IMG/VR virus record: IMGVR_UViG_3300039425_000002
Length of the DNA: 64,000 nt
From: a virus
Reading direction: 5' to 3' (one strand)
Part shown: positions 5,468-57,823 of the stretch, piece after piece
How the letters are laid out: the number at the start of each line of letters is the position of its first letter
How positions within the stretch are numbered: the first letter of the stretch is position 1
Made by a program: the position numbers and the translations under genes
The notes under the pieces: model-generated
Told to the model about the DNA's origin: nothing
The model's database searches: none
The model's input: only the letters and a program-made list of their open reading frames with translations

Positions 5468-6800
5468 TTGACACTCTTCGACCTAAAGGTACGAGGATTC
5501 TTGCTTCACGGGGATTCCAATGAATTTACCCTCAGCAAGCATCTTGACCGTATGCCCTACGGCTGCAAGTCCCCGAATGAGGACCACTTGAGCGGCTGCC
5601 ACATCCCTGTCTGTGGTATAACCGCAATTTGAACAAACATGAGTACGTTCCGAGAGTTCTTTCTTGCCTGTCTCAACACCACAACTAGGGCAAATCTGGC
5701 TGGTTTTGCGACTGTCTACTTTTTGGAAATAAACATCACGCTTAAAACAGGTTTGCTCTAGGATGTTAAAGAATTGCCCAAATCCAGCATCTAAACAATG
5801 CTTACCCAGCATTCCACGAGATAAGCCGACTAAATTTAGATCCTCAACAAATATCATTCCGGTATTGTTGCAGATTTGGTGAGACAATTTCCTATGCCAG
5901 TCTTTACGACAGTTAGCAACATACTCATGCAGTTTTGCAACCTTCTTCTGTGCTTTGTACCAATTGTTCCAGCCAATACGTTTTTTGGAGACGCGCTGTT
6001 GCAGTAATTTCAGCTTGTTTTCGGCATCTACAAAAAATCTCGGACGCTTGATAGTTAGTCCATTAGAAGTTGCAATAAAAGTAGTTAAACCAACATCAAT
6101 CCCTATTGCCTCTCCCTGTGGCATTGGCTGGGGTACAGATACATCCCATTGAACAGTTAGCATCACATACCATCCAGAAATTCGTTTAACCACACGAGCT
6201 TGTTTGACTACGCCCCCATCTGGAATTGACCTTGATTGACGTACTTTTACCGTACCAATCACAGGCAATTTGACATATCCATTGCTTAGTGGATTTGTCC
6301 CTAACTGGGGAAAAGAGAAGGACCGCATCCGTCCAGGCTTTTTGAATCTGGGGAAGCCATGATTTTGTTCCCACATACTGACAAAAGCCTTTTCCAATCG
6401 CCTCAACGTCTGCTGTAAAGATTGAGCATTGACACGTTTTAAATACTCACTTTTTTTGCGTGCAGCAGTCAAAGACTTGCACTGACTAGCAAAAGTTGGA
6501 CGGGGAGTATCAGCAGGGATGATGTATTCAGAATGAAGTGAGCAAGCGTTAACTTGGCAACTACGAGACTTATACCAATCCTTGCGCTCTGCTAAAGCAT
6601 GGTTGTAAACCCGTCTATGGGTTTCTAGCCATTCCTCAAACATCGCAACTTGGGACTGTATTGGTTTTAATTTAAACTCGTAAGTCAGGTTAAACACTTA
6701 ATTACCTCCTGACTTATTTTAACACATCTAATAATCGTTATTACGGTTTTTAGAATAAAGTTGCTCTCTTATGGGCGAGGCTCTAACCCCATGTTCTTGT
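5468..6800 (-). mobile_element. IS200/IS605 family element (tnpB only, IS1341-like)
   Basis: tnpB ORF; minus-strand right end ...GAAGAGTGTCAA at 5468; left end approximate. Confidence 0.75.
5483..6697 (-). CDS. tnpB: TnpB RNA-guided endonuclease, catalytic triad intact
   Basis: GIDVG, VEDL, CPSCG/CSNCG zinc finger, DRD. Confidence 0.95.
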   Translation of the reverse strand: MFNLTYEFKLKPIQSQVAMFEEWLETHRRVYNHALAERKDWYKSRSCQVNACSLHSEYIIPADTPRPTFASQCKSLTAARKKSEYLKRVNAQSLQQTLRRLEKAFVSMWEQNHGFPRFKKPGRMRSFSFPQLGTNPLSNGYVKLPVIGTVKVRQSRSIPDGGVVKQARVVKRISGWYVMLTVQWDVSVPQPMPQGEAIGIDVGLTTFIATSNGLTIKRPRFFVDAENKLKLLQQRVSKKRIGWNNWYKAQKKVAKLHEYVANCRKDWHRKLSHQICNNTGMIFVEDLNLVGLSRGMLGKHCLDAGFGQFFNILEQTCFKRDVYFQKVDSRKTSQICPSCGVETGKKELSERTHVCSNCGYTTDRDVAAAQVVLIRGLAAVGHTVKMLAEGKFIGIPVKQESSYL

Positions 6801-7281: not shown

Positions 7282-10200
7282 CTAACCTAACCCCGAAGCG
7301 ACAACTGACTGACGCGCAATATCACTCCAAATTCTCGCTCCATCGGAAACCGGCGAAGGGGAAGAAACATTCAAAGTTCTGGGAGAGGCGATCGCTGTCT
7401 TGTTGGCATCGATTAACTCGCGCAGACAGGTCACAATATCCCGGTTAGCTTCTTTCAACCCGCCCACAAACTGAGCGTACCCAGTAGTTTGGGCTGGGAC
7501 TTCAACTGGTTTAGCAGCAGCTGAAAGTTGTGAAACCGTTGACGATTCAATTAGACCTAACTGGCGGTTAAAGTAATTCTCAACTGATTCACGGGGATTA
7601 AGTCCTAAGCTTCTTTTGTATTGGCTTTCAGCTGACTCTAACGGGTCAAGGCCTAAGCGCCGTTTAAAGAATGCTTCCACCGAAGTGCGCGGATTCAACC
7701 CTTGGTGTCTAGATTGATCCGGAGGTAAATAAGTGGTGGTTTTAATCTCAGGTAATTGATTTCGAGCCGCTTCAAGCAAGGTAGGTTTGCGTTTAGATTT
7801 ACTGTCAGACAGATCCTCAAGTCCAGCAGAGGGAGTTATTGCGTTTTCCACTCTTCGACTGGCTGCTGCCTCTGCCCGCTCCAACCCTTCTGCCTGCTGT
7901 CGAGCGCTTTCTGCTGCATTCGCTTGGTCGAGCGCCGCTTGTTGGGTTGCGGATTGCGCGCGAAGTGCATTATCAGCTAATTCACCCTGGATTTTCAAAT
8001 TTTCTTTAGAGTTGGCGAGTTGTTTGTTGGATAGCTCCAATTGGCGGTTAGCAATCTCCAGTCCCACCTCGGCTGCCTTGATTGCCACAGTATCATTCGT
8101 TGCCCTTGCCTTGCTTAAAGCAGCAGATGCCTCTATTTGTGCTTGAGTTGCTCGTAATACCCCAATTTCTGCTTCAAACTCCGCTGTTTGTGCCGCGATC
8201 GCTTGTCTTTGTAAGTCTAATTTCAGTGATTCTCTCTGATATTCTTGCTCAGCCTGAAGTGCAGCCAGCCGCTTGTTGGCAATATCCTCCTCAATCGCCT
8301 GCCGGCGCCGGACGATCTCTAATTCAGAAGCCCCGGAACTAAATCCTGCATCGCGTAGAGAGTTACCAATTTCCCGCCGTACCTCTGGATCTAGGTCCTG
8401 ATCATCAAGCTTCTTACGTAGTTCTAATGCCCGATTCACGGTATCCAGTTCCGCTTGTTCAGAAGCGATCGCAGCATCCGATAAAGCCTTACGCAGGTCG
8501 AACCGACTTTGTTCTAATTGGGAAGTGCGCTCAACACTAGCATTTAGTAAGTCCTGAGCCGCTTTTTGCTGCTCAATCCCAGAAATTGCTAGATCCGACT
8601 GATTCTTCTGCGCTTGGATCTGGACATCAATCCTATGAATTACTTCATCCCGATGCAGCTTCTCCTGGTCAATTTCCAGATCGACTAATCTGCCATTAGC
8701 ATCTGCTAATTGCTGCTGAAGCTGAAGGCGCTTTTGAGTAGCTTCTTTAGCACTGATGTACTTATTTTGCTCGGCAATGCGAGTCTGTTCCAACTCGGTT
8801 TGAATCAGTCCAATTCGTTCATTTGTCGCTATTTTCTCTGCATCAATATTTTCTCTCTGAACTGCGAACTCCCCTACTCTTTGGTCCCCAGGAGTTCGGA
8901 GTAGTTGTAGCTGTTGCTGCTTAGCTTGAGTATTGCGGAGAGTCTGGTTCTTTTGGATCGCCGCTTCAACCTTTTGGTTTGCCTGCTCAATGCCATTCAA
9001 AATCTGCTTGTTGATCTCTTCTCTGACCGCCAATTCCTGCTCAGCTAGTTGGCGCTTCAAGCTCGACTGCTGAAGGACTAATTCCCGTTCTTTACTATCG
9101 AATAGCTCAGCACTGATAAGCCCTTGGCTGTGGTAGTCCCTGAGATTTTGTAGTTGGATATCAACACTTTGCTTTTGTTTGGTCGTGGCATCAGCCTGGA
9201 TGCGAGCTAAATCTACCGCCGCCTGTTCTTCAGTCAAGGTACGTTCAGAAATCGCTTTTTTAACAGCGATCGTCCGTGCATCTTCACTTTGTTGAATAAT
9301 TGCTTGGGTGCGCGCTGCGACGTGTTGAATCGAGTCGATCGCTTGAGCTTGTGCCTCAGAGCGAACCCTACCTTCAGCTTCATAAAATTGGGTACGAGCT
9401 TCATGCAGTTTAAGCTGTGCCTCTTTCGCTGTTTTCAGGGTTTCGAGAATGCTTTTATCCTCATCCTTGGTACTGGGAAGATCCAACAGCCCTTGGATGT
9501 CGGCAGCAGTGCTTTGGGGAGTCAAGCCAAAGCGGTCGAGTACGGGTTTGAAGCTAGGTTGGGCGATCGCTGCCTGTTTACCTGCAAAATCCCGCTCCAA
9601 TGCTTGCAGATCTTTAGCTAAGCGATCGCGCTCGGCTTGTGCTGCTGCCAAAGATGCCCGTCGGGATGCGAAGATGTCGCCGCTGAATCCACCTAACTGG
9701 TTTTTAGCAATCGTTTCGCGTTGCGTGGCAAAGGCGAGCTGGGATTGTTCGGCTGTTTTCGCTAGTTCCAGGTTTAGCTTGCGGAAGGCATCGGTCATCG
9801 CCAGGATTGGGTCAGCCTTTGTGGTCGCAAGCAGGTCAGCTAAAGCATCCCTGGCGGGTTCAGCTTTGGCTATTACTTGTTCCAGTTCTTTACGAATTGG
9901 AGCAACGAATTCTTCGCCACCGTAGCTGGCGATTGTAGCGGGGTCAGAGAGGGATTTAAGAGTAGCTTTGGTGATCTCAACACTGCGGTTTAACCTGTTG
10001 AACTGGTCGACTCCCTCTTTAGAGAATTGCTGCTGTTTGGCGATCGCATCATTGTAGGCAGCATCTAGTTCTTCCTTCTGAGTCTTGAAGGTTGTGGGTA
10101 CAGCAAGTCCTTTGTCGCTAAACTCGCGCTGAATTTGCCCTTCTAGTGTTTTGCGTCTGTTTGCGATTTCCTGAATGTCTACCTCGATTTGGGGCAAGAG

Positions 10201-13200
10201 AGATAAATTGGTTTTACCTGCTCTCCCTTGAGCGACTTCTTGGAATGCCGCATCTGCCGCTTTAGACAGCAGCTGTGCATTCTTTCTGATCGTCGTAATT
10301 GCATCGTCCCGATCTTTTTCTGCGTAAGTGTATGGCTTGCGTTCTTTGAATTCCTGTAGTTTCCTGGCCCTTTCCTCCTCTGAGTATGGGGCAGAGCGGA
10401 TATGTTCTTCTGTAATCCGATTCGTAAGATTAATAAAGCTATCAAATATATTGGCGGGTGGTAATTGAGTAGTAATAGGTTTTGAAACTTCATCTCGCAT
10501 TGACTGAAATGCCTCAGCGGCTTTACGAGCACTGCTCGACATCTCATCCAGTTGCCTAGTTAACGGTCCACCATTAATCAACTGCTGCCCCGCCTTAAAT
10601 ACCTCCAACGCCGCCGTAATCCCAGCGAACGTCAGTAGCATTGGCAGGGCAGATGTCCTCAGAGCTATCAACCCACCTTTGACCCCAGCCAATCCTGCCT
10701 GAACCAGTGGCAGAGCCTTAGCAAATTGAAATAAAGATTTGAGCAAAGGAACAGCAATGAATCCACCGAGCGTAGTCAGTGCCACAAGAACTGACTGAGA
10801 ATTATCCACTAAGAATTTCATTCCCTCGGATGCTGCATTCAAGCTAAGTACAAATGCAGGTTGAATCGTTCTGCCAAACGACTCTTGCAGTTTCAGAGTT
10901 TGGTTTTGTAGGTTAAAAATAGCAGACTGGGCATTTTTGGAGGCTAATACAGCCGCATCCCCGAACTCAGCTTTCAACTGTCTGGCGAACCTAGGTAAAA
11001 AATCTTGTGCTAAGACCTGCCCAGTCTCCAGCATCTTGTTGAGCTGCGCTTCAGTTACGCCCATTGCCCTGGCAGCGATTTGGAAAGCGCCTGGAATTCG
11101 TTCTCCTAATTGACCTCTTAATTCTTCGGCTTGCACCGTGCCTTTGGAAGCAATCTGAGTTAGTGCTAGTAACGCACCACTCGACTGGTCAGCGCTCAAA
11201 CTTAATACAGTTGAGGCTTCTGCAATCCCAGTAAAAATGTCCTTAGTCGCTTGACCGGCTAGCGACGTACCTCTGGTAGCAGCATTCAGTTGAGCAAATC
11301 CTTGCTGCGATTCAGCTAAAGGAACCTTTAACCTGTCAACTTCAGCTCGGACGAATGCCAGGTTTTTCGCTCCCGCTGCTGCCCCGCCGGAGGCAAAGCT
11401 GAGTGAAGTATTTAGCTTATCAAGCTCAATCGAAGCTCTCAGCGACGACTGACCCAGTGCAACGATCGCATCCCCAAAGCTAAAAACACCTACGAGCGCC
11501 AGAACACTTGTGAGCACATCCTTGGCAGTATTCCCAAACCTGCCAAAGGCTTGCTCTAGCTTATTAACAGATGGAATGCCAGATTCAATTCGCTTTAGCT
11601 CCTGGTCGATACCTCGGGCGGCAGAGCGCATGCGGTTGTCTGCGCTCTTGCTGGCGCGACGCAAGGCAGCGTCAAACTTATCAGAAGCTGCCTCGGCGTG
11701 GTGGAGTAACTTTAGTATTTTATCGAGAAGGTCTTTTTGTTCTCCAGTTGCTCCACGTCGATTCAATCTAGAGGATATATCAAGTGGTGCAGTTCTATCT
11801 GGCAAAGAAATATCTTCGAGTCTACGAGGTTTTGAGGTCCCCTGTTTAGGCGTTAATGATTTATAAGCAGCTGATCGCAGTATTCCAGATTCTAATGGTT
11901 CATCTCGTTGCCCAAAGTCAAGCTTAGGAGGACCACTTGGTTCCGGTTTAAAGGGGAGAACTAAAGGACTTGCCGCAACTCTTGTAACAATTCCTTGCTG
12001 TTTTGCGTTGCTTAATGAGCGATTAATAGAATCACTTTCAGCCTGCTGTTTTAAGTCTGCTAACCTATCACTCAAAACATTAGCTTCTTTCACCGCTTGT
12101 TGTTGTAAAGCAGCCAGTTTGTCAGTTAACTCTAGTGCTGGAGATTCTTGTTTTAAATTATTCAGTCGGCTCGATAAAGCATTTTGATCGTTTTGGGCTT
12201 GCTGTTTTAAGTCTGCTAACCTATCACTCAAAACATTAGCTTCTTTCACCGCTTGTTGTTGTATACTTGCAAGCTTGTCAGTAAAGCCTTGTTGGTCAAA
12301 TGCTGAAATCTTCTGGTCTTTAGATTGTATAGAGCTTCGCTCTTTTTCTCCGCTTTGCTTTAAAGAAGCTAAATTATTGACTAAAGCTTCTGTAGTGTTA
12401 GATGACTGTAAAGAAGCTTCTATTAGTTTATTGGTTATGGTATCAGCTTTGATTTGGGCTTGTAGGTTTAAGTCTGCTAACCTATCACTCAAAACATTAG
12501 CTTCTTTCACCGCTTGTTGTTGTAAAGCAGCCAGTTTGTCAGTTAACTCTAGTGCTGGAGATTCTTGTTTTAAATTATTCAGTCGGCTCGATAAAGCATT
12601 TTGATCGTTTTGGGCTTGCTGTTTTAAGTCTGCTAACCTATCACTCAAAACATTAGCTTCTTTCACCGCTTGTTGTTGTATACTTGCAAGCTTGTCAGTT
12701 AATGCATTGATATCAGTCTTGCTAGCAGGTATTTTGATAAGTGCGTCCGTAGAGGGCTGTAGTGGAGTTTCCGCGATCGCTAATGAAGGAAGTTTTTCGC
12801 CAAGTGGAATTTCTGCTTGGACATTTTTCACGCCTTGGGAAAATTGAGATTTCAGCGAATTGAATATCTGTTGTGTTCCCTCAAGCCCTATTCCCAAGCC
12901 TCGTAAAACATCCTGTCCTATCCGCTGAAACACTTTTGATGGCGAACGAATCTCTAATTCGTCTTCAGTTCCAGCAATTAATTCTTTTCCTAAGAGTCCT
13001 CCCGCCTGCTTGACTTCTCCTAAATTTTGCTTTATTGAACCGCTTATGCCCGATGCAACATCAGATCCTATAGAGCTAGTATCCGAAGAAGCTAAAGCCC
13101 GATTAACAGGTTTTAGCATATTGCTAATTAGCCCTTTCGCCCGTCCGACAGTGGAAGAAATCTCGTCGCCAAAATTAATGTCAATTCCTTCAGTCTTTGC

Positions 13201-29333: not shown

Positions 29334-29624
29334 CTACTCAAGCTTGCGCCCCCCAGATAAAGCGCTGCCGAGAGCGATCGCCAACTTGTCTGTATTAAAT
29401 CCCAAGGCTGAGGCTACCAAAAACAAATAGCCACCTAGCACATGCACTGGAACATCTTTAGTATGGATATCCAGACCAGATTTAGAACTATACTTAGCAT
29501 CAACTGACTGCCAGCAAAGTAGTCCAGTCAGGGCAATACTGAACAGATAAGCATAACCTTTGCCCAGAGTTTTAGATTGAGGAATAATTTCTTTATCGTT
29601 GAGCACTAGTCTGTTCCTCCCCAA
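29334..29624 (-). CDS. Two-TM membrane protein (holin candidate or pilus-cluster accessory)
   Basis: Two hydrophobic segments; near the endolysin. Confidence 0.5.
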   Translation of the reverse strand: MGRNRLVLNDKEIIPQSKTLGKGYAYLFSIALTGLLCWQSVDAKYSSKSGLDIHTKDVPVHVLGGYLFLVASALGFNTDKLAIALGSALSGGRKLE

Positions 29625-30168
29625 CCGCTACGCTTTGGTTAGTACACTTGATCTCCCCGCCGCCCATGTGAGCCTCGCCGGTTGTTAGCTCGATGTTGGC
29701 AGCACTCAGAACCTGCCCTAGCTGGGTTGATTCGCACATTGCGGTCAAGGTAGCCGGTTCACCAGAACCAGGTTGGTAAGCTAACCCGATTGCCCCAACA
29801 TAAGACTTGTAAGCATTGCCCTTGGGAGTCGCGATCATCGCTACCCCTACGCCCTCTTGGGTTGGAGCAAAGCTGTAGTCGTAATTGCTGGTAGAGGTGG
29901 CGATGCCCAAACCTAGTTTGCCAATCTGGGCAGTGTCGGTGACAAACTCACCGTGTTCAAGGTAATAGACTTGCTGCGCTCTGTTTAAGCTAGACAGGTT
30001 TACTTTGGCATCTGTTTGCTTTGCTTTGTTGGCTTGACTTAACAGCGAAGGTACAGAAATGGCAGATAGAATGCCAATGATAATAATCACGACTAATAGT
30101 TCGGTTAGGGTAAAACCTTGTTCTTTTTGCTGGTTTTTTAAATACTTTATTAGATAAAGTTTTATCAT
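29593..30168 (-). CDS. Type IV pilin (PilA-like, cyanobacterial pilin G/H type)
   Basis: Prepilin site QG|FTLTELLVVIIIIGILSAISVP; NRAQQVYYLE; C-terminal Cys pair. Confidence 0.92.
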   Translation of the reverse strand: MIKLYLIKYLKNQQKEQGFTLTELLVVIIIIGILSAISVPSLLSQANKAKQTDAKVNLSSLNRAQQVYYLEHGEFVTDTAQIGKLGLGIATSTSNYDYSFAPTQEGVGVAMIATPKGNAYKSYVGAIGLAYQPGSGEPATLTAMCESTQLGQVLSAANIELTTGEAHMGGGEIKCTNQSVAVGEEQTSAQR

Positions 30169-47932: not shown

Positions 47933-48274
47933 ATGCTTAAATCCATTCCCTATTATTCTCCACCTCGACCAGGAGACATTGTACTAATCGCCGCCACTCC
48001 CTTTGTTGACTGGCTGCGAGAAATTGATTTCGCTAGGGACCCGGAATTTTTTAAGTTCTACCGCTACGACCTACTACCTGCCCGAAGCGATCACCTCGAC
48101 CGCTGGCTGTGGGCGAAAAGCAGAGTAGTCCAAATCGAGGGGTGCGTGGCACGACTGCGATCGCCAACCTTGGGAGAAGCCAACATCCCCATCCACTGCC
48201 TGAGAGTGCTAGAAAGTACTGCCCTCGCTACATCGGAAGGAAAAAAACATGCCAAAACGCAAACGAACAGATAG
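47933..48274 (+). CDS. Hypothetical protein
   Basis: Coupled ORF. Confidence 0.5.
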   Translation: MLKSIPYYSPPRPGDIVLIAATPFVDWLREIDFARDPEFFKFYRYDLLPARSDHLDRWLWAKSRVVQIEGCVARLRSPTLGEANIPIHCLRVLESTALATSEGKKHAKTQTNR

Positions 48275-50531
48275 CACGTTAGACAACGACCTTCGCGCCG
48301 AAGCAGCTAGCAAGTTCCAGGCAGGCGATCGCGTTCTTTATAAACTGACGCAGCAAGAAGGCTTCTTTTTGGAAAAAGCAGACTTCGCTGTTCTGGAATG
48401 CTGGGTGCAATTTGACGACGAGCTGACTCCTAAACCTATATCGCCTCTGAACCTGGAGCTTTTACCGGAAGTAACATGGGTGGAAACCAATGTCTTACAT
48501 CTGGCGGTAGGCGATCGCATCTCTGTCGCGGCTTGGGGGCATCAGCAGGGAGATGTGGTGAGTGTAGAGCCGTTGGTAGTGCGGTTTGAGGGTAGAGATT
48601 GCGATTCAAAGATTAGTCAGCGGGATATAGAGCAGGGACTGAAACGATTATGGATAGGCAACTACGAATGCTCGACTGCTATGCCGGAGTTGGTTCCTTC
48701 AGCTATGCAGCCTCGCTTGTTGGTGGAATTGCCACCACCCAACTCATCGAAATCGGCGAGTTCCAGCAATCAGTCTTGCGATCGCGCTTTCCAGGAGTTC
48801 CCCTCCACGATGACATCCGCACCTTCAACCCATCAGGGCAACAATGGGATTTATTCTGCGCTGGAGTCCCCTGTCCTCCTTTCTCCAGAGAGGGTCGTCG
48901 AGGAGCAACCAGTGACCAGCGCAACTTGTTCCCCGACACCATCCGACTCATCAAACAATGCAGCCCTAAATGGGTCATCATCGAAAATGTTGTCGGACTG
49001 CTCGACGCTCCCCTGTTCCCCGGAGAGCCAGCAGGAACTTTCTTTAGACACTTACTTCGGTCCTTATCCAGCTGCGGGTACGTGGGCGAATGGCTCGTTC
49101 TCTCCGCAGCCTGCTTTGGATTGCCACACAGTCGTCAAAGGGTCTTTGTCGTTGCCTACCCCGACAGCTTTAAGTTCAAAGAACAGCCGACCCCCTGGAC
49201 AGAACAAATTAGAGGCGAAGTTGAAGAGTTTAGGGCTAATAGCCCCTGGCAAAACAGTCAATCCCGAATTTCTGGAAATGATGCAGGGATTTCCCAGGGG
49301 CTGGACAGCAGTTGCTTTAACGGGGGAAATCCCTGCACAGCACTGCCTTACGGATGCCCAACTTCCACTCCTGGAAGAAGTAGTATCACTCGTAGAAGAA
49401 GAGAAGTCCTTGGAAATACTATCGCTCTCCCCGTTGCAATCGCTGTCCTTAGAAGAGTTCTCTACCTCAATCAACTTACAGAATGAGGAGCTTACCTCGC
49501 AGGACTTGGAGTATGGGAAGATGGTTGAAATAGTTCCCGCCGAAAGTTTGGCGACTGGTGGCGGGGAGGAGAATAAATTACTTAGCGACTCCACTATGGA
49601 TAGTACCATAGGCGGCACAGCTGTTGCTGCCGAAAAGTCTATTACTGCTCTTTCTTTAAATGAAATAGCCACTGACGGCGGTACTCAGTCACGCCTCAAG
49701 CTGAATCATGTAACTATTGAGGATTACGCCGAAGCGATGCAGGCGGGTGTAGAGTTTCCGCCCATAACCGTGTTCTATGACGGTAAGATCTACTGGCTAG
49801 CTGACGGTTTTCATCGAGTAGCAGCAGCGAGAAAAGCTTTTGTTGAAGATATTGCTTGTGAGGTACGGCAAGGCACTCGGCGCGATGCTGTGCTGTATTC
49901 GGTTGGTGCTAATGCTGCTCACGGTCTACCTCGCAGTCGGGAAGATAAGAAGTGCGCTGTCATGACCCTGCTGCATGATGAGGAGTGGAGTAAGTGGAGC
50001 GATCGCGAGATTGCTCGTCAATGCCACGTCGATCATAAGTATGTTGGTAAGTTGCGTAAAGAGGTCAATGGGGATATCCCCATTGAGAATCGCACCTTCG
50101 TTTCCAAACATGGCACGATTGCCACAAGGAGAGTAGAAAATAAAAAATCAACAGATGACTTTCCAGAAGGCACATCCGTCTTACTCAAACCTTCACACCA
50201 TCTGAACGGGCATAATGGTACGATTACTTCCCGTCCAAACGCGGAGACAGCGATCGTGAAGATAGAGGAGACGGGAGAGCGGGAAATTGTATCGCTACAT
50301 CACTTGCAACCAGTTATTGAAGAGGACGCCCAGACGGGGAGGCAGGGAGACGCGGTGACATTGCAGATGGTGAATGGGGCGGCAATGCAAGAGTCGTGCA
50401 ATCTAGCAGTATTAGCGACTGAAATTACAATTGGCGCAATCAGTAGTGCTAGCTTGCTATCAGATGCTCAAGTCAAATCAATTTTTGAGGCATATAAACA
50501 CAGGTTTGAGCAGCTGGGACTCCTAGGATAG
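48249..50531 (+). CDS. Multidomain protein: C5-MTase motif IX segment plus ParB/Srx-like domain and HTH
   Basis: NPEFLEMMQGFPRGWT; YWLADGFHRVAA; WSDREIARQCHVDHKYVGKLR. Confidence 0.7.
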   Translation: MPKRKRTDSTLDNDLRAEAASKFQAGDRVLYKLTQQEGFFLEKADFAVLECWVQFDDELTPKPISPLNLELLPEVTWVETNVLHLAVGDRISVAAWGHQQGDVVSVEPLVVRFEGRDCDSKISQRDIEQGLKRLWIGNYECSTAMPELVPSAMQPRLLVELPPPNSSKSASSSNQSCDRAFQEFPSTMTSAPSTHQGNNGIYSALESPVLLSPERVVEEQPVTSATCSPTPSDSSNNAALNGSSSKMLSDCSTLPCSPESQQELSLDTYFGPYPAAGTWANGSFSPQPALDCHTVVKGSLSLPTPTALSSKNSRPPGQNKLEAKLKSLGLIAPGKTVNPEFLEMMQGFPRGWTAVALTGEIPAQHCLTDAQLPLLEEVVSLVEEEKSLEILSLSPLQSLSLEEFSTSINLQNEELTSQDLEYGKMVEIVPAESLATGGGEENKLLSDSTMDSTIGGTAVAAEKSITALSLNEIATDGGTQSRLKLNHVTIEDYAEAMQAGVEFPPITVFYDGKIYWLADGFHRVAAARKAFVEDIACEVRQGTRRDAVLYSVGANAAHGLPRSREDKKCAVMTLLHDEEWSKWSDREIARQCHVDHKYVGKLRKEVNGDIPIENRTFVSKHGTIATRRVENKKSTDDFPEGTSVLLKPSHHLNGHNGTITSRPNAETAIVKIEETGEREIVSLHHLQPVIEEDAQTGRQGDAVTLQMVNGAAMQESCNLAVLATEITIGAISSASLLSDAQVKSIFEAYKHRFEQLGLLG
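48650..49486 (+). CDS. DNA (cytosine-5)-methyltransferase, alpha-type polypeptide
   Basis: Motif I YAGVG, IV GVPCPPFS, VI IENV, VIII RQRVFVVA, X LGNTI; no motif IX in this frame. Confidence 0.88.
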   Translation: MDRQLRMLDCYAGVGSFSYAASLVGGIATTQLIEIGEFQQSVLRSRFPGVPLHDDIRTFNPSGQQWDLFCAGVPCPPFSREGRRGATSDQRNLFPDTIRLIKQCSPKWVIIENVVGLLDAPLFPGEPAGTFFRHLLRSLSSCGYVGEWLVLSAACFGLPHSRQRVFVVAYPDSFKFKEQPTPWTEQIRGEVEEFRANSPWQNSQSRISGNDAGISQGLDSSCFNGGNPCTALPYGCPTSTPGRSSITRRRREVLGNTIALPVAIAVLRRVLYLNQLTE

Positions 50532-50557: not shown

Positions 50558-51940
50558 GTGACAACTCCACTCACTAATTGCTTGCAATTAGCGGCGGCTT
50601 CTCAAACTCACGAATGAGACTTGCTGCCTCACAGGCTGAGTAACCTCTAAGCCTCCGCAGCCAGGAATCGGTAGTCCCACCGACCCACGTTTTAACAGAT
50701 TCAGCGCCGCATTCCAATCTCTGTCTATCACTAACTTACAGCTAGGACAATCATGAACCCGAACGCTCAAACCTTTTTCAACTCGCGTACCACAACTAAA
50801 ACACTCAATGCTACTTCTTCTAGGGTCAACTCCTTTTGTCCGCTTGCCGCATTTGACTGCCACTGCTTGCAAAATCTCAAGGAATCCACCCCAAGCAACA
50901 TCGAGTATTGATTTAGCTAATCGAGTTCTAGCCAAACCTTTGATGTTTAAGCTCTCAAAAACAATTAAGTCATAGGAATTAACCAACCAATGAGCAACTT
51001 GATAATGAAACTCTTTTCTCTGTCTTGCAACGTGCAAATGAAGTCTTGCAACCTTGTTGGCTTGCTTTTGGTAGTTCTTAGACCCTTTGATAGACCTTGC
51101 AAGTTTACGTTGTTGACGGGCTAAAGTTGCGTGTGTTGTCCGATAGTAATGTGGTACTTCAACACTTTGTCCATCAGCAGTAGTTAAAAACTTCTCTAAC
51201 CCAACATCTATGCCAGTAGCTGTTTTAATTTCATCAATAGGCAATGCAGTGGGAACAGTCTTATCTTCCAGCGAAAAGCTTACATACCATCCGTCAGCTT
51301 TGCGTAAAATCGTTGCTTGTTTAATCTCAAATCTCTCTGGAATTGGGCGGTGCAGAATAATTTCAACTTTGCCAATTTTAGATAACTTCAGAACATTTCC
51401 TGATAGGTCTGCGCCTGCTTTTGAGGAATTAACACGCGGAAACGTAAAAGAACAGATATCGCCGCGCTTCTTAAAACGTGGTCGTCCTCCCCGCTTACCG
51501 TTCTTGTCTGGAATCAACCAGCGCTTCCAGCATGAGTCCAACCGCATCAAGTTCTGTTGCTGGCAGTCAGCGTAGATGTCCTTGTACTCAGGAAACAGTT
51601 CTTTGGTTTGTTTTAGTTGTGATGCTTGAGTGTAGTAATCAACTTTTTCTGGGATCTCACCAATTGGTTCAGAAACGAGACTACAACGATCTATTTGACA
51701 CGCCCGTCGATTCAACCAATCAAGTCTTTGACCGAGTGCGTAGTTGTAGTGACGACGCAGCAATTCGCCCCAAGTCTCCATCGTGGCGACCTGTTCAGGT
51801 GTAGGGCAAAGACGGTACTGGTACGTAAGCAACATTTATTAATTGTAGCATATTTAGCTTATGAAATACCTAAAAAACTGTATGTTCGCATTCCCCTCAC
51901 CGCCAACACTTGTATGGCGGGAGTACCCTGCGGAGGTCTA
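50558..51940 (-). mobile_element. IS200/IS605 family element (tnpB only)
   Basis: tnpB ORF; minus-strand right end ...GGAGTTGTCAC; left-end hairpin near 51890-51935 (boundary approximate). Confidence 0.75.
50588..51835 (-). CDS. tnpB: TnpB RNA-guided endonuclease, catalytic triad intact
   Basis: GIDVG, FESL, CFSCG/CPSC, DRDWNAA. Confidence 0.95.
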   Translation of the reverse strand: MLLTYQYRLCPTPEQVATMETWGELLRRHYNYALGQRLDWLNRRACQIDRCSLVSEPIGEIPEKVDYYTQASQLKQTKELFPEYKDIYADCQQQNLMRLDSCWKRWLIPDKNGKRGGRPRFKKRGDICSFTFPRVNSSKAGADLSGNVLKLSKIGKVEIILHRPIPERFEIKQATILRKADGWYVSFSLEDKTVPTALPIDEIKTATGIDVGLEKFLTTADGQSVEVPHYYRTTHATLARQQRKLARSIKGSKNYQKQANKVARLHLHVARQRKEFHYQVAHWLVNSYDLIVFESLNIKGLARTRLAKSILDVAWGGFLEILQAVAVKCGKRTKGVDPRRSSIECFSCGTRVEKGLSVRVHDCPSCKLVIDRDWNAALNLLKRGSVGLPIPGCGGLEVTQPVRQQVSFVSLRSRR

Positions 51941-55264: not shown

Positions 55265-56848
55265 ATGAAAACCCTCGAATTCGCTCTTCACCCCAACTCC
55301 TCTCAACAAGCCAGCCTAAGCGGCTGGCTAGAGGCATTGCGATGGGTGTGGAACGAGGGCTTGAGGTTATGCCTAGAATTTGATCGCTACTCCGCTTGGG
55401 ATAAGCAGAGTAAAACCTGGACTGCTTGCTGCCCTAGATTTGGTGACGAGAAGATCCGCTGGCTTAAAGAGGGTGACAATTGGATTGCCGCTCCCTATTC
55501 TCCCATCGCCACCCGACGCAATCCTACCCGATTCTTCTGTCCGCTGCCTCCTGCCAAAGAATACCGTCAGCCGCAGCTACCGAATATCAGCGAATTCAGT
55601 CTGGCATCAGCTTTCGCTCACAAACGCCATCCTGACAAGCCGTGGCTCAAAGCAATCCCCGCCAATTTTATTCGGGGCGTTACTCAGTCGCTCAATACTG
55701 CGTGGCAGCGATATAAGAAAGGCGAGCAGGGGGAACCGCGCTTCAAAGGTAGGGGCAACTCCCTGGAAACGTTGACAAACAACGACGCGAAGATTATCAA
55801 GCGGGATGGCGATCGCCTGAAGATTCCCAATCTGGGTTGGATTCGACTCAAGGAGTTGACCCAACGATGGGGAGAAACAGCAATTAGCAGTCTAAAAATT
55901 TGTCAGCGTCCCTCTGGGTGGTACGTGCAGTTAAGTGGGGAATTACCAGAAAAAAGTTTTCCTAATCCATCGCGACCTGTAGCGGGAGTCGCCTTGATTT
56001 GTAAGGGGGCGCATCACGCAACTCACTATAAGCGACAAACTATTCAGTATAGACCGCACCAATTAGAGAGAAAGCTGCACAGACTGGAGCGGCAGCTAGC
56101 TCAACAACCTAACGAAGGATCAGAACAGCTCCTTGAAGGATTAAAGGCAAAGATAAGTCGCGCTTATACGCTGATTCAGGCGAGAGTGCATAAGTTAGAA
56201 GCAAGGCTGCTGAGGCTTCAGCGCCAACTAGCGCGGCAGCAATTTCTATCAAGCAACTGGCAGCGAACCAAAAAAGAAATAGGCAAGCTGCACGAACAGA
56301 TTCGCTTGCGTCGGCGTAACCTGAACCACAAACTATCGACTTTCCTGGTACGGCAGTACGACACCTTGGCAATTCAGAAAATTAAGCCGGGTCCTAAAAA
56401 GCGACCCCAACCCGTTCCTATCAACACCGACCCCCAGCAGTGGGCAGAGAATGGCGCACTTGAGCGCAGCCGCAAGAATCGATACATTGCTGACTTGGGG
56501 ATAGGACAGTTTGTAAGTTTCGTCAAAAGCAAAGCAGAAAAAGCTGGTCGAAAAGTTGTAGAAGTCGCTACAGAAACGGGACTTTTCGGTCAGGAGTTGG
56601 CGAGAAAGCTTCAAACAGAGTACATCTCTGGGCGAAGGTACGATGAGTGTGAATCGGAACTGATGCCTGTGAAGGGGGGCGATTCGCCCTCGGTGCAGCA
56701 GGAACCTGGACAACCGGGACATGCCAACCCAGTTGGCACAACTCAATCCTCAACTCAAGGTGCAACAACCTCAGCTCAAACGATAGATAGGAGCTTGCAA
56801 GATTCTTCAGAATCTGAAGCGGGACAGGGCTTTCCACGTCCGCCGTGA
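55265..56848 (+). CDS. Nuclease-dead TnpB-derived compact type V effector (C2c8/V-U2-like)
   Basis: TnpB-type MKTLEF...WVWN, PRFK, GWYVQL, SSNWQRTKKEIGKLHEQI..RR..NHKLST; RuvC-I GVA (D->A), RuvC-II AIQK (E->Q); zinc finger/RuvC-III absent; abuts CRISPR array. Confidence 0.85.
   Translation: MKTLEFALHPNSSQQASLSGWLEALRWVWNEGLRLCLEFDRYSAWDKQSKTWTACCPRFGDEKIRWLKEGDNWIAAPYSPIATRRNPTRFFCPLPPAKEYRQPQLPNISEFSLASAFAHKRHPDKPWLKAIPANFIRGVTQSLNTAWQRYKKGEQGEPRFKGRGNSLETLTNNDAKIIKRDGDRLKIPNLGWIRLKELTQRWGETAISSLKICQRPSGWYVQLSGELPEKSFPNPSRPVAGVALICKGAHHATHYKRQTIQYRPHQLERKLHRLERQLAQQPNEGSEQLLEGLKAKISRAYTLIQARVHKLEARLLRLQRQLARQQFLSSNWQRTKKEIGKLHEQIRLRRRNLNHKLSTFLVRQYDTLAIQKIKPGPKKRPQPVPINTDPQQWAENGALERSRKNRYIADLGIGQFVSFVKSKAEKAGRKVVEVATETGLFGQELARKLQTEYISGRRYDECESELMPVKGGDSPSVQQEPGQPGHANPVGTTQSSTQGATTSAQTIDRSLQDSSESEAGQGFPRPP
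56650..56844 (+). ncRNA. Putative omegaRNA/tracrRNA-like scaffold and leader overlapping the effector 3' end
   Basis: TnpB right-end-like GCCTGTGAAG...GCAGCAGGAA; hairpins gggcg/cgccc and tgccaac/gttggca; GTGCAACAACCTCA complementary to the repeat 3' end. Confidence 0.55.
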
Positions 56849-57823
56849 AACTAGTCTTAGTTGATTGAGGGGAGTTGCACGAGCACGACGAATTTACCCC
56901 CGAGCAGATACTTCAGGTGAAACTAGTCTTAGTTGTTTGAGGTGAGTTGCACTGGTCTGACAATGATCAGAGATCGATCTGCTAGGTTGTGAAACTGGTC
57001 TTAGTTGTTTGAGGTGAGTTGCACAACAATGATGAACTGTACAGCTCTGGTCAAACAACGGTGAAACTAGTCTTAGTTGTTTGAGGGTTGCACTCCTTGG
57101 ATGCTCGCTGAACAACTAGCAACTCCCGTCAAGTGAAAAGCCTTGGTTAGTTGAGGAGGCGTTGCACCCTAGAATATCTAAGCTTTGATTGCCTTGTTCA
57201 CCCATGTGTGAAAAGCCCTTGATTAATTAAGGAAAGTTGCACTTCTGCATACCAGAATGAGGTTTTTGCTTTCGTTGAGTGAAACTAGTCTTAGTTGTTT
57301 GGGGAAAGTTGCACACAACTCGTAGGAGGCAGTATGACCCCTGAAGTAGAGTGAAACCAGTCTTAGTTGATTGAGGGGAGTTGCACTCAACGCCAGTGGT
57401 ATTACAAGAACTGCTTGAGCAGGTGAAAACACCCTTGATTAGTTGAGGAAAGTTGCACAGATCAATAGCTGGCAAAGTGATCGCTCGGCTAGAGGTGAAA
57501 ACACCCTTGATTCAGTTGAGGAAAGTTGCACGTAGTGGTTTGTAAGCCTTCTTCACGTTCTTACGCTTCGTGAAAACACCCTTGATTGGTTGAGGAAAGT
57601 TGCACAAAACTCGGAAGCCCAAGAGTTCCTGGCTGGGTGTTGTGAAAACACTCTTGTTGGTTGAGGTAAAGTTGCACATGGGCGTGGACCTGTTGAGTGA
57701 AACTAGTCTTAGTTGCCGTGAAGCGTCCTTTAGTGACTTGAGGTGAGTTGCACATCGCTTATCCATTGTATTCGCGGGAGCATGAGGCTGAAAACACTCT
57801 TGATTAGTTGAGGAAAGTTGCAC
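56845..57823 (+). CRISPR. CRISPR array: 14 repeats (33-37 nt), 13 spacers (34-40 nt)
   Basis: Repeats start at 56845, 56917, 56989, 57061, 57133, 57208, 57279, 57351, 57423, 57495, 57570, 57642, 57718, 57788; consensus GTGAA...TTGAGG...GTTGCAC; + orientation inferred from gene direction and the degenerate last repeat. Confidence 0.95.

Follow-up and report, generated by a model that had tools for sequence, protein, structure and literature searches.

A cyanophage cassette pairing a nuclease-dead V-U2-derived Cas12 effector with its own CRISPR array and a predicted scaffold RNA

The window (the whole stretch of viral DNA analysed, 64,000 nucleotides) encodes a compact Cas12 effector that has lost its RuvC catalytic positions and whose gene runs directly into a CRISPR array. 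We consider it probable (about 0.7), judging from sequence and predicted structure, that the product is an RNA-guided, non-cutting DNA binder, which would silence its targets by acting as a roadblock.

The effector gene and its descent

The effector gene was delimited at positions 55265-56848 on the plus strand and characterized by ORF mapping, HMM search, AlphaFold modelling, fold matching and alignment. Its frame is unbroken and encodes 527 aa, and the TGA stop codon forms bases 2-4 of repeat 1 of the array, which starts at 56845. In an alignment of 174 proteins, Ala243 (codon 55991-55993, plus strand) and Gln371 (codon 56375-56377, plus strand) occupied the RuvC-I and RuvC-II positions, aligned to the catalytic Asp and Glu of both TnpB proteins of the window. 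The zinc finger and RuvC-III had no counterpart in the window protein, being deleted further downstream of Gln371. The ORF and array mapping and the alignment therefore agreed with the first-pass annotation, which had described a 527-aa ORF ending inside the first repeat of a 14-repeat array, had placed the RuvC-I and RuvC-II changes at the same two codons, and had claimed the absence of the zinc finger and the DRD segment. The two TnpB genes of the window, located at 5483-6697 and 50588-51835 (-), are of the IS605 type and intact; both keep the zinc finger and all of the D-E-D triad, and their motifs read GID/FES/DRD and GID/VED/DRD.

The AlphaFold model of the window protein showed a TnpB fold with a mean pLDDT of 80, residues 469-527 falling below 50. 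The best match in the fold search was the ISDra2 TnpB (8exa, E 6e-16), with Cas12p ranked 3rd, Cas12m 26th, and Cas12k 47 and 49. The folded core of ~465 aa would be small for a CRISPRi or base-editing chassis. Cys/Pro-rich and helical insertions were present according to both the alignment and the model. Alignment, modelling and comparison with homologs further revealed a tandem duplication of the bridge-helix segment (56039-56236, plus strand), in which aa 259-280 and aa 303-324 are identical at 14/22 positions. A helical insert of ~42 aa here is missing in the closest homologs, P0002 and P0003, and the duplicated segment is a feature of the query only. By analogy with Cas12m, in which helical insertions are thought to tighten binding (PMC11013384), the duplicated segment may have the same effect. 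The C-termini of the intact V-U2 ORFs at loci L003, L004, L005, L006, and L027 carry a QLxL(x)W-like motif, which is absent from the window protein (56820-56848) and its Pro-Pro-ending relatives.

Among the HMMs compared, NF038192 (C2c8) was the best for the window protein, with 276 bits, below the cut-off of 350. The dead relatives P0002-P0004, P0014, and P0021 scored 250-319, P0009 scored 364 and L048 566; the intact relatives L027 and L005 reached 504 and 409. Against NF038281 (IS200/IS605 TnpB), the window protein obtained 117 bits, compared with a cut-off of 425, and it lacks the active RuvC expected of that class. There was no match to the V-U1/C2c4 (Cas12m) NCBIfam model at E 0.1 and none to the Cas12k HMM.

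The FastTree phylogeny comprised 100 rows, namely 98 of the 174 proteins (the closer hits and every sequence without D or E) and two plasmid proteins; this sampling was enriched for dead sequences, and the alignments used for FastTree and IQ-TREE retained the RuvC catalytic columns. The window protein fell into a clade of 34 rows (support 98), in which the RuvC-I Asp and RuvC-II Glu never occurred together (0/34) and the two CxxC motifs were likewise absent (0/34). The sister group consisted of three D/E/K proteins with an intact zinc finger and three D/A rows without it. With IQ-TREE (42 rows), the dead clade comprised 17 rows (SH-aLRT 95) and the wider clade 22 rows (95), the branching order between them being unsettled. 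The loss of RuvC-III may have come early. The window protein was nested among proteins above the NF038192 cut-off; P0009 belonged to the same 40-row (support 95) and 22-row (95) clades. The best HMM and both trees bore out the likeness to C2c8 (V-U2) that had been claimed, and descent of the window effector from within V-U2 is supported at the level of sequence.

Further dead branches occur within V-U2; one of them, outside the window clade, is represented by the RefSeq c2c8 protein of Chroococcidiopsis thermalis (WP_015162998), which has S and K at the RuvC-I and RuvC-II positions, no zinc finger and no array, and scores 566 bits. RefSeq c2c8 genes on two Chroococcidiopsis plasmids (L048 8001-9512 and L049 8001-9512) are dead by sequence and retain the scaffold described below; one apparent repeat remnant was seen there and no array, and their inactivation is independent.

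Comparison of the window gene with that of the related provirus L001 (encoding P0003) gave a dN/dS of 0.11 over 421 codons and 0.12 in the WED/REC half, which is the best-conserved part (80% identity); the underlying dS of ~1.9 is near saturation. The RuvC-I substitutions vary across the dead clade (A, T, S, E, V, C, K), and the same A/Q substitutions recur in six proteins. These values support maintenance of the effector under purifying selection, with no decay. The check proposed beforehand, on whether homologs keep the inactivating changes under purifying selection, thus came out in the affirmative (no row of 34 with D plus E, dN/dS 0.11), and the shared A/Q pair together with the dN/dS speaks against the case in which the closest homologs are intact and this copy is decaying neutrally.

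The array, its spacers and the phage setting

Repeat mapping placed the CRISPR array at 56845-57823 (plus strand), with 14 heterogeneous repeats of 33-37 nt and 13 spacers of 34-40 nt; the start-to-start distance is 69-76 nt. All 14 repeats differ from each other, while their last 7 nt are identical in 14/14; the first 5-6 nt are conserved as well, the first five being identical in 13/14. The repeats were found via the conserved 7-mer, and their spacing leaves no room for an overlooked one. The repeat hairpin was stabler on the plus strand in all 14. Array mapping resolved spacer 12 (57678-57717, plus strand) into a 19-nt spacer remnant and a partial repeat, likely the scar of a recombination or deletion. 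Spacer 7 (57315-57350) contains a ribosome-binding-like hexamer followed four bases on by ATG, which resembles a gene start. Duplicated spacers were observed in the arrays of L001 (11626-12320; one full and one shortened copy) and L047 (11672-12220; two identical spacers side by side), pointing to recombination within arrays.

A Pfam scan of the 79 window ORFs yielded no cas1, cas2, cas4 or Tn7 families, in agreement with the claim that adaptation genes and Tn7-like genes are lacking nearby, and neither Pfam nor PHROG families for tnsB, tnsC, or tniQ occurred among the scanned ORFs. An adjacent array without an adaptation module, one of the criteria for V-U2, is found at the window locus.

The origin of the spacers was approached through a survey of cas1_MYXAN in 201 genomes, in which 15 loci exceeded the cut-off and the repeat was recovered at 9. 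Eight of these nine repeats end in GCAC, and 7 are 36 nt long; 15 cas1 loci outside this group yielded 12 repeats, none with that ending. The repeat of the intact locus L006 resembles the non-MYXAN cas1 repeats instead. Internal similarity to the I-MYXAN repeats is weak, and it is absent for the window type A repeat and for L001. Cyanobacterial I-B and MYXAN systems are the same group. ATG, the expected PAM of type I-B (PMC9881144), precedes the one protospacer found. With moderate confidence, we infer that a host type I-MYXAN Cas1-Cas2 supplied new spacers in trans; the mixture of repeats also points to recombination.

The spacer searches that had been proposed gave a match for one of the 13 spacers. 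Spacer 9 (57459-57494, plus strand), taken at its exact boundaries, matched another contig at 35/36 positions, with one mismatch, non-repeat flanks and a 5' flank ending in ATG; the candidate PAM 5'-ATG derives from this single site. In each of the two runs containing this phage, the matching contig (14.5 and 32.5 kb) shows open frames around the target; the runs are not independent, as both may be the source of the phage DNA. The depth of the target contig was 0.56 and 0.43 of that of the phage contig in the two runs. The target is absent from the window itself, and the remaining 12 spacers had no credible match in any search. The target contig could belong to another phage or to a plasmid; with the phage at about two copies, the host chromosome would fit too. 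A near-perfect target at high depth would fit a non-cutting effector only if phage and target share cells. We infer that co-resident mobile elements are more likely targets than host genes.

Pfam and PHROG families identified capsid, tape-measure, tail, DnaB, ParA/ParB, and Cro/C1-type genes in the window. These structural and replication genes, together with 95 HIP1 octamers in 64 kb, fit the cyanophage origin that had been suggested. An integrase was not detected in the window, itself only part of a genome; the ParA/ParB and Cro/C1-type genes and a relative classed as a provirus point indirectly to a temperate phage. That relative, the IMG/VR provirus L001, encodes P0003, which is 64% identical to the window protein with the same A and Q, and has the same Pro-Pro-stop inside repeat 1 of a 10-repeat array. 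L001 and the window share DnaB, methylase, nuclease, and tail-region genes, and in both phages the cassette lies between the replication and structural genes. On the Gloeobacter morelensis plasmid pGMOR1, a partly dead relative has an array directly behind it, with repeats ending in GCAC. The expectation that homologs stay array-linked therefore held for the L001 provirus and the Gloeobacter plasmid, but not for that part of the dead clade without this array layout.

A type IV pilin gene was detected at 29593-30168 (-) by Pfam and PHROG. By analogy with prophage flagellin and TldR, the phage pilin could replace a silenced host pilin; the gene is 25 kb away from the cassette, no spacer matches it, and it has no homolog in the partial relative G004. 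A C5 DNA methylase ORF (48650-49486) lies in another frame inside a longer ParB-like ORF (48249-50531), and the same overlap is found in L001.

A predicted scaffold RNA and a mini-repeat relative

Alignment, covariation and a covariance model predicted the core of an omegaRNA/tracr-like scaffold at 56620-56748 (plus strand), with four stem regions, in the 3' end of the effector gene; there it overlaps the coding sequence for the last helix and the disordered protein tail. The alignment covered ~130 nt of nine loci, of which five are intact and four dead, three of the latter having arrays and one being a C2c8 locus. Its consensus contains 30 pairs, 27 of which show compensatory changes on both sides, and 92% of cells were paired, compared with 61.5% in shuffles (0/500 as high) and 39-51% with slid partners, figures biased in favour of the structure because a single alignment served both to derive and to score it. 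Within the three dead array loci alone, both sides had changed at 17/29 pairs. A covariance model built from the nine loci found the held-out loci L007, L192, L193, L043, and L021 at 41-96 bits and gave weaker matches at L045 and L023; it found nothing at the window's two IS TnpB genes, and a comparison of the scaffold region with Rfam returned no match. Two dead relatives with DNA context, L037 and L002, had neither a scaffold match nor an array behind the gene. In L027, a second copy of the scaffold core (8507-8625, 85 bits) lies in frame within the intact V-U2 gene.

Base pairing is predicted between the loop at 56647-56650 and the final 4 nt of the repeat. Between the first scaffold loop and the repeat end of the same locus, 4/4 pairs were possible in five of six array loci and 3/4 in L047, the combinations being GTGT/GCAC in the window and L001, and CTTC/GAAG, CTTG/CAAG, and CTTT/AAAG in the intact loci. 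The held-out L192, L193, and L043 fit the same pairing by sequence reading. Since loop and repeat end change together (CTTN to GTGT, -AAG to GCAC), the orientation of the array is fixed as plus. A candidate anti-repeat, complementary to the 3' end of the repeat, was located at 56760-56775 (plus strand) through ranking among ORF windows and shuffles; it ranked 3-4 with z -2.9 (25 shuffles), the values for L001 and L047 being -4.4 and -1.6, and its support is moderate. The predicted pseudoknot and the anti-repeat compete for the same 4 nt. When folded alone, the window scaffold plus repeat was no better than shuffles (z -1.3), and that of L001 gave z -3.6.

A more derived arrangement was observed in L037, a contig from a JGI metagenome whose ORFs include some that look like head genes. 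Its gene at 9310-10752 (+) encodes P0021, which is dead and truncated after RuvC-II. Just upstream and divergent, the region 7790-8960 (- strand) contains ~38 units that match the 7-base repeat end exactly or nearly so, mostly at intervals of 16-27 nt; of the 28 exact copies in the locus, 24 are packed into 1.2 kb. Hairpins at about 8955-9110 precede the first mini-repeat unit and may be the scaffold of this locus. Three of the L037 spacers end like cyanobacterial CRISPR repeats. L037 is the only 7-base mini-repeat locus found.

In a less likely reading, cyanophages would have evolved a multi-guide programmable transcription regulator from a V-U2 nuclease, with which they would silence host chromosomal genes and rival elements, and its descendants would have cut the repeat down to a 7-base handle. 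Some 38 guides would then fit in 1.2 kb, in a form missed by standard array finders and probably not extendable by Cas1-Cas2. If this is true, a 7-base-handle array implies another way of writing guides, and the series from an intact triad through RuvC-III loss and full death to the 7-base-repeat array would illustrate a possible path from nuclease to regulator and the reduction of a repeat to nothing but its handle.

Proposed mechanism, alternatives and known systems

In the proposed mechanism, a single transcript would run through gene, scaffold and array and give rise to both scaffold and crRNAs, with a host RNase presumably needed for crRNA processing. The protein would load the scaffold from its own 3' end and array-derived crRNAs, holding the repeat's invariant 7-nt 3' end as the putative crRNA handle. 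The conserved WED/REC half would read a 5' PAM, an R-loop would form, and the bound complex, without cutting, would stand in the way of transcription or replication at a host gene or a co-resident element. A domesticated, multi-guide, non-cutting binder had been proposed by the first-pass annotation: V-U2 descent, an old shared inactivation, selection, array linkage and one protospacer speak for it, whereas its binding and repression are predictions.

The dead effector might instead be a targeting module that recruits a partner, such as a recombinase, transposase, sigma factor or methylase, and represses nothing itself. Dead Cas12 proteins are used in this way, for example Cas12k and the RpoE-linked dead Cas12f (PMC10691335), and the Cys/Pro-rich and helical insertions could be docking surfaces. 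However, no Tn7, integrase or sigma family occurred among the 79 window ORFs, the immediate neighbours of the effector differ among the window, L001, L047, and L037, and L037, L047, and L027 share no notable non-TnpB neighbour with the window; we regard such recruitment as unlikely. Conservation of the WED/REC half above all other parts, the type I-B-like ATG 5' of the protospacer (PMC9881144) and a scaffold that tracks the repeat end make it less probable still that the protein binds RNA, or diverts host crRNAs or adaptation machinery as a decoy, without DNA targeting, even though the repeats are unusually variable and their termini, which resemble those of host I-MYXAN repeats, could engage host Cas proteins.

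Residual cutting or nicking through a rearranged active site appears highly improbable. TnpB proteins often have RuvC sites that are rearranged yet probably active (PMC10691335), a review table gives V-U2 as cleaving (PMC11641405), and the six closest dead proteins have some acidic columns in common, which either are acidic in intact relatives too or fall away from both motif positions; yet the window protein retains none of the three catalytic positions and no zinc finger, and the RuvC-I substitutions vary freely in the clade, unlike a fixed rearrangement. The view that an intact V-U2 nuclease has become a decaying pseudogene beside a relic array is strongly disfavoured. It would account for the heterogeneous repeats, the spacer 12 scar, the lack of adaptation genes and the few spacer matches, but against it stand the open frame, the A/Q substitutions identical in six proteins, the low dN/dS after a dS of ~1.9, the compensatory changes among the three dead loci and the 35/36 protospacer in the same samples. 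A non-cutting DNA binder thus remains the preferred reading.

Among known systems, V-U2 (C2c8, NF038192) resembles the window locus in the lack of adaptation genes, the gene running into the array and the same scaffold core. In contrast to most V-U2 members examined, which are intact, the window protein lies below the family cut-off and has neither the catalytic triad nor the zinc finger; its heterogeneous repeats end in GCAC, whereas those of the intact V-U2 relatives examined end in -AAG or -AAC. Cas12k is cyanobacterial, nuclease-dead and tracrRNA-dependent, but the window locus differs from this type V-K CAST effector in having no Tn7 genes, no Cas12k HMM match and a weak fold rank. A published table also lists Cas12k as non-cleaving and tracrRNA-requiring (PMC11641405). 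Carriage of V-U2 by a cyanophage has been published for vB_AphaS-CL131, at whose locus no tracrRNA was found and a regulatory role was suggested (PMC6293099).

Cas12m (type V-M, formerly V-U1) is likewise compact and array-linked, and it silences by binding without cutting (PMC11013384). Cas12m is guided by a single crRNA, needs no tracrRNA, carries out its own pre-crRNA processing and has kept its zinc finger, whereas the window protein has no zinc finger and is accompanied by a predicted scaffold RNA, which sets the system apart. The nuclease-dead TnpB repressors TldR, which like Cas12m silence without cutting (PMC11013384, 10.1101/2023.11.30.569447), have one adjacent guide RNA and linked cargo such as fliC or oppF (10.1101/2023.11.30.569447); the window locus differs from them in its 13-spacer array and its descent from a CRISPR effector. 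Cas12p, or "Cas12 hacker" (PDB 9jfs), is a phage-encoded miniature Cas12 with a tracrRNA and a 4-nt pseudoknot to the 3' end of the repeat (10.1101/2025.01.20.633832), but according to the same source it is an active nuclease that recognizes a GTN PAM and carries a thioredoxin-binding domain; it is 14% identical to the window protein in a structural alignment.

The text portions of PMC10691335 name the dead Cas12 branches V-U24, V-U43, V-U44, and V-M, with V-U2 not among them, while its data tables may list this clade; in the literature searched, which left most subscription papers outside, a dead V-U2 clade with linked arrays was nowhere described. By its sequence features, the window system would work like Cas12m or TldR and belongs to neither, being a V-U2 derivative below the family cut-off. 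What is new here is the predicted covarying scaffold in the 3' end of the gene, with a loop that changes together with the last 4 nt of the repeat. If the proposed reading is true, it would represent an independent origin of cut-free CRISPR targeting, in a phage. The parts list (protein, scaffold, repeat handle, one target and candidate PAM) makes the little-tested V-U2 group assayable, with intact and dead sisters alongside.
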